Position numbers and translations under genes: made by a program
DNA from: an uncultured bacterium
GTDB taxonomy: Bacteria; Chlamydiota; Chlamydiia; Chlamydiales; JAAZZY01
Reading direction: 5' to 3'
Assembly (NCBI GenBank): GCA_964612505.1
Contig: CAZTEX010000002.1
Coordinates: 61,943-125,942 of the forward strand
DNA length: 64,000 nt
Notes under the pieces: generated by a model
What the model saw: the letters and a program-made list of their open reading frames with translations, nothing else
Databases searched by the model: none
What the model was told of the DNA's origin: nothing
Shown: one piece after another, positions 50,655-52,142 of the stretch
Layout of the letters: every line of letters begins with the position of its first letter
Numbering within the stretch: position 1 is the first letter of the stretch

Positions 50655-50767
50655 GAATGGCCGTATTTTTTCAAATACGGCCATTCTTCTTTAAATAAGG
50701 CCAAATAACTTGAAAAAATGGCCGTATTTCAGTTAAAATGGCCGTATAAGACAAAGGTGGCCGTAAT
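50655..50767. promoter_or_regulatory. Operator-like array: a 14/14-bp perfect palindrome plus three direct TGGCCGTA(T/A) repeats phased at 20 bp, just 5' of the Fic gene
   Basis: GAATGGCCGTATTT-tttc-AAATACGGCCATTC at 50655-50686, then ATGGCCGTAT at 50718 and 50738, and GTGGCCGTAA at 50758. That gives five copies of the 9-10-bp core in 113 bp. Confidence 0.5.
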
Positions 50768-52142
50768 GAGCTTACGTGACAATAAAATGATTGTATTGAG
50801 GGCACTAGGTTTGGAATTCGAACCGATCGGTCTGCCAGAGCTGATGAATAGATTGGGAGAAGATTTTAAGGAAAGATTAGTCAGGAGATGGTTGCAGCTT
50901 CTAGTTAGAGAGGGAGCTGTTAAGAAAATAGGTCAAAAGCGCGGAACTAAATATATTGTAGTAGGTCGATCGGAAGAGGCTAAAGACGAAATAAGCAGTT
51001 GTTTTAGTTCGGCAAGTCTGAAAGTTATTGAGTTCGTGAAGAGGCCCTTGTTTGAGCGACAACCTGTTGCCTATGCTGACGATTGGTTTGATAGCTATCA
51101 GCCTAATTCTAGCTACTATTTATCAGAGGTGTTGCGACGGCAGTTGCAAGCATCAGGGGAGCGATCTAATGCCAAAGATCCAGCAGGCACTTACGCTCAT
51201 CAAATTTTTAATAGGCTGATCATTGATCTGTCATATAACTCCTCGCGCTTAGAGGGAAATACCTATTCCTTGTTAGATACTGAACGTTTGCTGCTTCATG
51301 GCGATACTGCCGAAGGAAAGCTCGATGAAGAGAAGGCGATGATTTTAAATCACAAGGAAGCTATTCGTTATCTTGTTGATAATGCACCAAAAATCGAAGT
51401 TAATCGTAATGTCATATGTACACTACACTTTTTGCTATCTGATGGACTTGTGCAGTCAACGGAAGCGGGCAAGGTACGAAGGCATGGCGTTCGCGTTGGA
51501 GGGTCAACCTATATCCCATTTGAAGATCCAAAAAGATTAGAGCAGCAACTGGAGAAGATTGCTCATAAGGCAATGCAAATTAGAGACCCTTACGAACAGA
51601 GTATTTTTCTATTGATTCATATTAGTTATTTGCAAGCCTTTGCAGACGTGAACAAACGAACTGCTCGGCTATCAGCTAACATATCGTTGATTCGAGGAAA
51701 CCTTGTGCCGCTCGCATTTAGTGATGTCAGAGTCGAAGACTATATGTCAGCAATGATTGCAATCTATGAACTTCAAAACGTGAAGCCGCTGGTAGACCTA
51801 TATGTTTATTCCTATCTACGTACCTGCGCAGCCTATGATTCGACAGTTAAAGCAATGGGCTTTGATGAGGTACGCGTGCGGTATCGACAAGAAAGAAAAA
51901 TAGTGGTTAGGAACGTAATCTTACAAAGATTAATCGGAGAGGAAATAAAAAAGTTTGTAGATACAGAGGCAAATGAGCAGATTCCAACAACAGCACGGGC
52001 AGACTTTGTGGAAGATGTCCTAGAAGACTTAGACCAGATGGATGAAAGCAGGTTGGCTGGTCTAGGCATCACGCCAGAACAATTGAAGGAGTGGAAAGAG
52101 AGGCATTTGAAACTCTCAAATGGAAAAAGATCTCACTGCTAG
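50766..52142 (+). CDS. Fic-domain protein with N-terminal winged-HTH and a degenerate Fic motif
   Basis: The Fic-fold region ...LIHISYLQAFADVNKRTARLSANISLIRGNLVPL shows FxDxNxRxxR but lacks the His and both Gly of HxFx(D/E)GNGRxxR. N-terminal wHTH-like KMIVLRALGLEFEPIGLPELMNRLGEDF. The start is ambiguous: the ATG at 50718 would put the iterons inside the coding region, so I favour the ATG at 50766. Confidence 0.6.
   Translation: MSLRDNKMIVLRALGLEFEPIGLPELMNRLGEDFKERLVRRWLQLLVREGAVKKIGQKRGTKYIVVGRSEEAKDEISSCFSSASLKVIEFVKRPLFERQPVAYADDWFDSYQPNSSYYLSEVLRRQLQASGERSNAKDPAGTYAHQIFNRLIIDLSYNSSRLEGNTYSLLDTERLLLHGDTAEGKLDEEKAMILNHKEAIRYLVDNAPKIEVNRNVICTLHFLLSDGLVQSTEAGKVRRHGVRVGGSTYIPFEDPKRLEQQLEKIAHKAMQIRDPYEQSIFLLIHISYLQAFADVNKRTARLSANISLIRGNLVPLAFSDVRVEDYMSAMIAIYELQNVKPLVDLYVYSYLRTCAAYDSTVKAMGFDEVRVRYRQERKIVVRNVILQRLIGEEIKKFVDTEANEQIPTTARADFVEDVLEDLDQMDESRLAGLGITPEQLKEWKERHLKLSNGKRSHC
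52093..52124. repeat. Degenerate copy (B) of the att-flank repeat, embedded in the last 15 codons of the Fic gene
   Basis: TGGAAAGAGAGGCATTTGAAACTCTCAAATGG shares the (G)AGAGGCATTTGAAACT core with copy A. Confidence 0.35.

Follow-up and report, generated by a model that had tools for sequence, protein, structure and literature searches.

The 64-kb window analyzed here, meaning the whole 64,000-nucleotide stretch of contig CAZTEX010000002.1 from an uncultured bacterium of the Chlamydiales, contains a gene for a 458-amino-acid protein (50766 to 52142, plus strand) that a profile search, an alignment, and a structural model identify as a wHTH (winged helix-turn-helix) joined to a Fic domain with glutamine in place of the catalytic histidine, here written Fic(Q). 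Between this 458-codon open reading frame (ORF) and a flavin adenine dinucleotide (FAD) monooxygenase gene (49390 to 50583) lies a region (50640 to 50800) in which one short word is repeated on both strands. We describe this array, the protein encoded next to it, and the mobile DNA on which both are carried.

We counted the core word TGGCCGTA on both strands of the window and took the expectation from 100 shuffles. It occurs six times against 0.33 expected, a count that none of the 100 shuffles reached. Five of the copies, at 50658(+), 50676(-), 50719(+), 50739(+), and 50758(+), fall within 108 bp upstream of the wHTH-Fic gene. The sixth, at 44755(-), is intragenic and was the only exact copy found outside the array in the window, and the 11-mer AATGGCCGTAT, counted without mismatches, is confined to the array. 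The first two copies (O1, 50658 to 50665, plus strand, position -108 from the ATG; O2, 50676 to 50683, minus strand, position -90) belong to a palindrome at 50653 to 50688, an inverted repeat that is perfect across 16-nt arms (AAGAATGGCCGTATTT, 50653 to 50668, and AAATACGGCCATTCTT, 50673 to 50688) with a loop of 4 nt. The earlier note on this DNA had described a perfect palindrome with 14-nt arms and three direct repeats phased at exactly 20 bp. Both features exist, but the arms are longer, and the direct copies start at 50719, 50739, and 50758, with a spacing of 20 bp and then 19 bp.

The remaining sites are arranged around a predicted sigma-70-type promoter (50710 to 50739, plus strand), the top promoter match in the region, which consists of TTGAAA (50710 to 50715), an 18-nt spacer, and TAAAAT (50734 to 50739) and agrees with the consensus at 10 of 12 positions. 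Directly upstream of the -35 hexamer is O3 (50696 to 50703, minus strand, position -70), which has one mismatch in this genome (TAAGGCCA). The three direct copies follow on the plus strand: O4 (50719 to 50726, position -47) lies within the spacer between the hexamers, O5 (50739 to 50746, position -27) overlaps the final base of the -10 hexamer and the expected transcription start, and O6 (50758 to 50765, position -8) overlaps the Shine-Dalgarno sequence AAGGTGG and abuts the ATG. A degenerate seventh site, O7 (TGATTGTA, 50788 to 50795, plus strand), is found in codons 8 to 10 of the gene.

This arrangement is conserved. A locus scan using one genome per species yielded 37 related loci, all from Chlamydiota-type metagenome-assembled genomes, with 48 to 94% protein identity. 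In about 30 orthologous chlamydial loci, the same word recurs at fixed offsets from the ATG of ~-110(+), -92(-), -72(-), -49(+), -29(+), and -8(+), and many orthologs have an extra site at ~+22(+), inside codons 8 to 10. When we aligned the upstream regions of 27 chlamydial loci (66 to 94% protein identity), the site columns and both promoter hexamers were found to be conserved to 90% or more, with drift in the spacers. Both half-sites of the O1/O2 pair are kept in the orthologs and the sequence between them is variable; the O3 position reads nearly invariantly TACGGCCA in the alignment; O6 is present in about two-thirds of the orthologs; and the O7 position carries the full extended motif, AAAATGGCCGTATT, in 12 of them. 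The two degenerate sites of this genome, O3 and O7, thus both sit where orthologs have intact ones. Clustering of ORFs of at least 80 amino acids in the 37 loci revealed no conserved neighbor that might be an antitoxin or a target, and the only recurrent ORF "families" near the gene were spurious ORFs overlapping fic itself. The wHTH-Fic gene is therefore the only constant partner of the array. Two loci, L028 and L029, have an interrupted fic ortholog (at ~4001 to 5400), with its N-terminal part shifted out of the reading frame or broken by stops; these may be pseudogenes or assembly errors, and their upstream arrays remain.

The orthologs also bear on the start codon, which the earlier note had treated as ambiguous. 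All of them begin with MSLRDNKM at the ATG equivalent to 50766, with AAGGTGG in front of it. Since they share this start, since their upstream spacings differ from one another by numbers that are not multiples of 3, and since the ATGs upstream of 50766 are part of the ATGGCCGTA word, the ATG at 50766 is the true start of the gene, and the ambiguity falls away.

In more distant relatives (30 to 50% identity), encoded on proteobacterial plasmids, prophage-like contigs, and islands, we found equivalent arrays built from other words, among them TGTCCGAA, TGGCGCGA, TGTCGCGA, and TTGCGCNTA. The change of word is already visible within the chlamydial loci. Two of these (L027 and L039; 67 to 69% identity to the query) use TGTCCGAA with the architecture unchanged, and their predicted recognition helix and wing (SNRTIRRW...KSGHTK) are unlike those of the main type (KERSVRRW...KIGQKR). 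The locus L032 (48% identity) uses ATGGCCAKA, and the locus L038 (38%) has six copies of ATGGCCGGAAT. Elsewhere, a Thiothrix plasmid (46%) carries five copies of TGGC[GCT]GATAA, Aromatoleum and Undibacterium plasmids (~37%) carry TGGCGCGAWA, and an Allorhizobium plasmid (39%) carries TTGCGCNTA. Desulfobacula-type and other contigs have TGGCACAT, TGGCGCAAT, or TGTCGCGA, and eight IMG/VR contigs (34 to 41%) have TGTCGCGA, TGGCGCAG, TTGCGCAT, or TGTCRCG. In most of the loci with divergent words, a site is fused to the -10 hexamer (TAAAAT-GGC... or ATAAT-G...). To put a number on this, we counted nonoverlapping copies of any 8-mer, allowing at most one mismatch, from -170 to +30 in 22 promoters of the family and in 660 control windows from the same loci. 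At least five copies of some 8-mer were present in 17 of the 22 promoters but in only 30 of the 660 control windows, and at least six copies were present in 13 promoters and 5 control windows. The earlier note had raised the idea of an autoregulator, and phylogenetic footprinting together with the co-variation of operator word and protein strongly supports it: a conserved array that changes in step with the protein is the pattern that would be expected from a self-regulating DNA-binding protein of evolving specificity.

We next turn to the protein itself. The Pfam Fic profile (PF02661) matches it with an E value of 4e-8 and 34.4 bits against a cutoff of 24, which places it in the Fic/Fido superfamily, and the closest sequences with solved structures are those of FICD/HYPE (E value of 5e-9, phmmer); CccR matches weakly at the sequence level (E value of 0.015). 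An AlphaFold model built from 143 diverse sequences reached a predicted local distance difference test (pLDDT) score of 84.6. Foldseek searches with this model returned FICD first (E value of 5.6e-9; template modeling score of ~0.6 on the target), followed by BT_2513, CccR, CbFic2, and SoFic. An earlier model built from 30 close sequences had a pLDDT of 66 in the Fic core and gave uninformative Foldseek matches. The Fic fold with an N-terminal winged helix, read in the earlier note from the letters alone, is thus borne out by profile, structure comparison, and model. The winged helix spans amino acids 1 to 65 (50766 to 50960) as three helices and a hairpin in the model and is followed by a low-confidence linker (amino acids 66 to 78), the Fic core (about amino acids 140 to 350), and an all-helical C-terminal region without a strand hairpin (amino acids 351 to 458). 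Within the core, the motif SSRLEG (amino acids 159 to 164, S159-S-R-L-E163-G164; 51240 to 51257) aligns with the TVAIEGN inhibitory helix of FICD and assigns the protein to class II of Fic proteins.

The active-site motif is a variant one. Where catalytic Fic transferases have HxFx(D/E)GNGRxxR, this protein has QAFADVNKRTAR (Q290 to R301; 51633 to 51668), and in the alignment with FICD (HPFxDGNGRTxR), Q290 lies under the catalytic His, a Val under the first Gly, and a Lys under the second. The loss of the His that the earlier note had pointed out is therefore real. The protein does not qualify as a Doc protein (TIGR01550) either: the DOC_P1 profile scores 14.3 bits against a cutoff of 38.65, the protein has 458 amino acids and lacks the His, and NKR is the only feature shared. 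Apart from this subthreshold match, a search of NCBIfam returned no curated family, and a search of a phage collection returned only generic Fic-core matches.

The variant motif is typical of a large family. An exhaustive search yielded 3,354 cluster representatives at E values up to 0.001, of which 548 had E values below 1e-30 (clusters at 50% identity), and the 548-cluster clade spans Chlamydiota to Proteobacteria. Among the 150 best sequences, 132 have Q-[PAG]-F-x-D-[VG...]-N-K-R-x-x-R, and SSRLEG is kept in nearly all. In 406 family sequences that we fetched, the catalytic position is occupied by Gln in 384 and by His in 1 (P0096); the remainder are truncated or have further changes at the K/R positions. 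P0096 is a chlamydial ortholog with 71% identity whose His, in SYLHAFIDVNKRTAR, could stem from a sequencing error or from reversion at one nucleotide. Conservation is highest in the Fic core and, among the folded domains, lowest in the winged helix, with pairwise identities of 0.85/0.78 versus 0.66 among chlamydial members and 0.78/0.70 versus 0.42 in the broad set. Residues N195-H196, H221, G235, and R238 are invariant in the family alignments. The N195-H196 pair (51348 to 51353; MILNHK), in the helix after the inhibitory helix, is invariant family-wide and absent from FICD. Because the Q-x-F-x-D-V-N-K-R-x-x-R motif and SSRLEG are under strong purifying selection, the Fic(Q) domain is not a relic. 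Gln at the catalytic position is a family hallmark, an ancient and selected state, and the possibility entertained in the earlier note that the domain is catalytically dead is not supported in the sense of decay. Our search of the literature for Fic motifs of the Gln type and for Fic regulators of chlamydiae returned nothing specific and no description of this clade, and a chromatin immunoprecipitation sequencing study of Waddlia does not cover the wHTH-Fic protein.

Both the gene and its array are carried on mobile DNA. A 36-nt repeat (TGGAAGAGGAGAGAagcatttgaaacttttgattgg; copy A, 50604 to 50640, plus strand), made up of a degenerate, displaced 3' end of the transfer-messenger RNA (tmRNA) gene and an element arm, lies just to the left of the array and marks the outer boundary of an islet. 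Copy B (53588 to 53625, plus strand), which is not part of the operator, marks the inner boundary, and between the two lie fic as the first gene of the islet, an RpiB-type isomerase gene, and a methyltransferase gene. Copy C is the 3'-terminal 14 nt of the tmRNA gene (54484 to 54894, minus strand), the integration target. Between copies B and C are a rhodanese fragment and a C-terminal remnant of a recombinase-family gene. The same type of element, TGGAGGTGGAGAGAcgcattcagaacttttgattgg, often precedes the chlamydial array, and its first 14 nt correspond to the 3' end of the tmRNA gene on the opposite strand. In two other loci (L003, with repeats at 3511 and 5208, and L004, at 3860 and 5518), the repeat is found on both sides of the fic gene, ~1.66 to 1.70 kb apart, and in L002 (repeats at 3853 and 5515) and L007, fic is the sole gene between a repeat and the tmRNA gene. 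Further copies are spread over L017 (3835, 6117, 7204, and 7845) and L030 (3836, 6786, and 8348). From these repeats, the tmRNA 3' end looks like a site of tandem accretion of integrative cassettes. Elsewhere, family members are found on integrative elements, on prophage-like contigs, and on plasmids, where genes for integrases, recombinases, or conjugation lie beside them; they also occur in islands that carry Abi_2, RhuM, HigB, and HipA genes and occasionally on viral-type contigs. The wHTH-Fic gene is solitary and carried on mobile DNA, and in chlamydial genomes it occupies the outermost place in small islets stacked at the tmRNA 3' end. Mobile DNA is the usual setting of self-repressed toxin, addiction, or defense genes.

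Several further observations concern these islets. The tmRNA gene of the window (minus strand, tag ANKQRKSKVVAGDFGYSDAALEMAA) is accompanied by two more direct copies of its 3'-terminal 14 nt with a conserved 22-nt extension. In the inner islet, the match of a 69-amino-acid ORF (54007 to 54216, plus strand) to a rhodanese domain is restricted to the domain's C-terminal half (Pfam positions 56 to 101 of 102), and the ORF is a truncated gene. An ORF fragment at 54262 to 54478 (plus strand; …EKRQLLNLVFQNLQLRGLNLSVSEQEPFLTMLDCKDHPTNW) runs into the tmRNA 3' end and matches DNA of the Neochlamydia plasmid pS13 that lies just downstream of the gene for a "recombinase family protein" (57% identity, E value of 2e-8); it is probably, from this match, the C-terminal remnant of a recombinase that served the islets. 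Its flank, gatcatccaaccaRt, also precedes repeat copy B, at 53573. A further weak resemblance to the tmRNA 3' end at 47283 to 47305 (plus strand; TAGATGTGGAGAGAatcgaatac), comprising the 14-mer with two mismatches plus part of the T-arm, may reflect chance or a relic of greater age. The G+C content is 0.40 to 0.43 across 49300 to 55500 and 0.33 to 0.38 in the flanks, and the richer segment includes the monooxygenase gene to the left of copy A. Elsewhere in chlamydial genomes, the 36-nt repeat forms arrays of up to four copies in 4 kb, and the tmRNA terminator hairpin (ggcttcagt...actgaagcc) lies in the left flank of many repeat copies. In L039 (462 to 1870), genes for an XRE-type helix-turn-helix (HTH) protein and a 324-amino-acid Fic protein with a faint ankyrin match lie directly upstream of the TGTCCGAA-type wHTH-Fic(Q) gene, so that two unlike Fic modules adjoin downstream of another tmRNA-end repeat.

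We consider it likely that the array is the operator of the gene that follows it and that this gene encodes a tightly self-repressed one-component regulator carried by mobile elements, with a Fic(Q) domain that is functional but is not a His-dependent transferase. In the mechanism we propose, the N-terminal winged helix would bind the 8- to 10-bp word (A)TGGCCGTA(T), and the flexible linker (amino acids 66 to 78) would let the protein, as dimers or oligomers joined through the Fic core, the C-terminal helices, or both, fill half-sites of either orientation that lie about two helical turns from each other. Occupancy of the seven sites, from -108 to +30, would block both RNA polymerase and the ribosome-binding site. 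Tight negative autoregulation is predicted because the sites cover the DNA upstream of the -35 hexamer, the spacer, the -10 hexamer and start site, and the ribosome-binding site and ATG. The Fic(Q) domain probably binds a phosphate-bearing ligand or a partner in a Doc-like (NKR) pocket and acts as the sensor or effector half of a one-component system, coupling ligand binding to DNA binding or to an effector activity. Our belief about this half is split roughly evenly between a sensor or pseudoenzyme and a noncanonical enzyme or toxin.

Several points weigh against this interpretation. That the protein binds the array, in which direction it regulates, and where transcription begins are all inferred from sequence. 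Direct and inverted half-sites do not usually occur together at the operator of a simple dimeric winged-helix repressor, and the flexible-linker assumption is therefore required. Not every site can be essential, because about one-third of the orthologs lack O6 and this genome has only degenerate forms of O3 and O7. Nor is a uniform biochemical role of the Fic(Q) domain guaranteed, since P0096 has a His and the K/R of the motif has been lost from a few distant lineages. Finally, the word count covers 64 kb of the genome, and further targets, amounting to a regulon, could lie elsewhere in it.

The strongest competitor keeps the operator and the autorepression but makes Fic(Q) an active enzyme or toxin with noncanonical chemistry, for example, Doc-like phosphoryl transfer or a hydrolysis by way of the cis Glu163 or of the invariant His196, in a single-polypeptide addiction or anti-phage module. 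Autorepression would then hold the dose low until a trigger freed both the DNA and the inhibitory helix. In favor of this reading, the residues of the pocket, the inhibitory helix, and the family-specific N195-H196 pair are all near or at invariance. NKR is a Doc variant of the Fido motif (PMC2686095), and there is a weak DOC_P1 match, although at 14.3 bits it falls far under the cutoff of 38.65. The best PADLOC matches are to the defense candidates PDC-S04 (6e-14) and SoFic (1.6e-9), but they span the generic Fic core only. The neighbors of family members, which include Abi_2, RhuM, HigB, HipA, integrases, and transposases, point in the same direction, and the loci L002 and L007, where fic stands alone between the attachment (att) repeat and the tmRNA gene, would fit retention by selection. 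Against it, the general base of all characterized Fic/Doc transferases is missing in 384 of 385 sequences. On balance, we regard an enzyme or toxin of this kind as a serious possibility to which we assign distinctly less than even probability.

The other alternatives concern the repeats, and we find them much harder to reconcile with the data. The array might be architectural, either as arm-type or accessory sites of the recombinase that targets the tmRNA gene, with the wHTH as a directionality factor, or as a centromere- or iteron-like assembly. It begins 15 to 60 bp from the displaced tmRNA 3'-end repeat in many chlamydial loci, its phasing of about two turns resembles that of partition or intasome assemblies, and integrase or recombinase genes often adjoin the relatives. 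However, the array keeps its place with respect to the -35 hexamer, the -10 hexamer, and the ATG but not with respect to the att repeat, and in at least 10 chlamydial loci it is present while the att repeat is absent. In the plasmid and prophage relatives, whose contexts are unrelated, the sites overlap the promoter in the same layout, and there is no Rep or ParA partner; an architectural function is accordingly improbable. We rejected plasmid replication iterons in particular, because the unit is 8 to 14 bp long, occurs in both orientations, and is centered on the promoter, there is no Rep gene, and the array is found on chromosomal islets as well as on plasmids; the label "iteron-like" used in the earlier note does not apply in the replication sense. 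The AbiEi-type module suggested there likewise finds no counterpart here, and we rejected a type IV toxin-antitoxin system of the AbiEi/AbiEii kind because no AbiEi Pfam match was found at an E value of 1 or below and no AbiEii or other conserved partner in the 37 loci. Least probable of all, and hardly to be credited, is that the upstream monooxygenase gene has its intrinsic terminator in the palindrome and that the other copies have arisen by chance or as a dispersed repeat. The palindrome does lie 70 nt past the stop codon of that gene and would form a strong hairpin as RNA (predicted fold of -23 kcal/mol, z = -7.6), but no T-run follows the hairpin, and a terminator scan was negative. Moreover, the upstream gene is not conserved and varies among loci while the sites persist, and the word is restricted to this promoter and co-varies with the downstream protein; this reading was rejected.

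The locus thus offers a concrete, testable protein-operator pair for a widespread and unstudied branch of Fic proteins, for which natural specificity variants exist. Transcription factors are very few in chlamydiae, where genetics is also poor, and the wHTH-Fic protein adds a predicted chlamydial regulator with a defined binding word. The ancient and selected loss of the His suggests that Fic domains may have a nontransferase role in gene regulation, and the repeats suggest that small cassettes, acquired by horizontal transfer, stack up at the tmRNA gene. More tentatively, and with more doubt than conviction, we propose that the large Gln-type, Doc-like (NKR) clade represents a distinct Fic function, either a domain that senses a nucleotide or phospho-ligand and drives a one-component repressor or an enzyme with new chemistry. 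Its gene would be solitary, self-repressed, and mobile, with a rapidly diversifying winged-helix operator specificity, and would travel in chlamydiae as a ~1.66-kb cassette bounded by tmRNA 3'-end copies.

Among known systems, the closest parallel is CccR of Yersinia pseudotuberculosis (PDB 7XUX), a dimeric Fic protein of class II that carries an HTH and represses the promoter of its own gene (PMC9755527). Its operator is an inverted repeat of two 10-bp arms separated by a 26-bp gap near the -35 and -10 hexamers, and the protein AMPylates FtsZ, has separable regulatory and Fic activities, and is an effector of the type VI secretion system (PMC9755527). The protein described here shares with CccR the class II Fic core and its cis inhibitory helix, the fusion to a winged helix or HTH, and the repeated boxes beside the -35 and -10 hexamers, and autorepression of the CccR type through repeats in its own promoter is predicted from the positions, conservation, and co-variation of the sites. 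It differs in that CccR, like SoFic, has the Fic core first and the DNA-binding domain at the C terminus, whereas here the winged helix is N-terminal and an extra helical C-terminal region is present; in that the CccR motif is canonical (HPFGNGNGRTVR) and not QAFADVNKRTAR; in that CccR uses one inverted repeat, compared to five to seven sites of mixed orientation and ~20-bp spacing here; and in that no secretion context was seen at this locus.

For the core itself (amino acids 150 to 350), the best sequence and structure matches are FICD/HYPE, SoFic, BT_2513, and CbFic2. As in class II AMPylases, the (S/T)xxxE(G/N) inhibitory helix is present, as SSRLEG, and the flap GxxR is conserved, whereas the catalytic His of FICD-type proteins is replaced by Gln and both glycines of the motif by Val and Lys. 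SoFic and CbFic2 also carry an HTH, but a C-terminal one, with no specific operator in their own promoters reported; the Fic activity of CbFic2 is switched by DNA binding (PMC10628234). The Lys in place of the second Gly (D-x-N-K-R-T-A) is shared with Doc, whose variant of the Fido motif is HPFx[D/E]GN[G/K]R (PMC2686095), and phd-doc likewise pairs a DNA-binding autorepressor with a Fido domain, although on separate polypeptides. Doc, however, is a single domain of ~125 amino acids that keeps the His, has no cis inhibitory helix, and needs Phd, while the core described here is FICD-like and no phd gene is present. Kinch et al. (2009; PMC2686095) observed that many Fic domains are fused to HTHs, mostly ArsR-like, that "may regulate expression of fic" by analogy to Phd; this prediction was general and without operators and was silent on the Gln-type clade and on multisite arrays. 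HTH-Fic autorepressors are therefore already known, as in CccR, and what sets the present system apart is its domain order, its Gln/Val/Lys motif, its multisite array, and its packaging as a mobile single gene.

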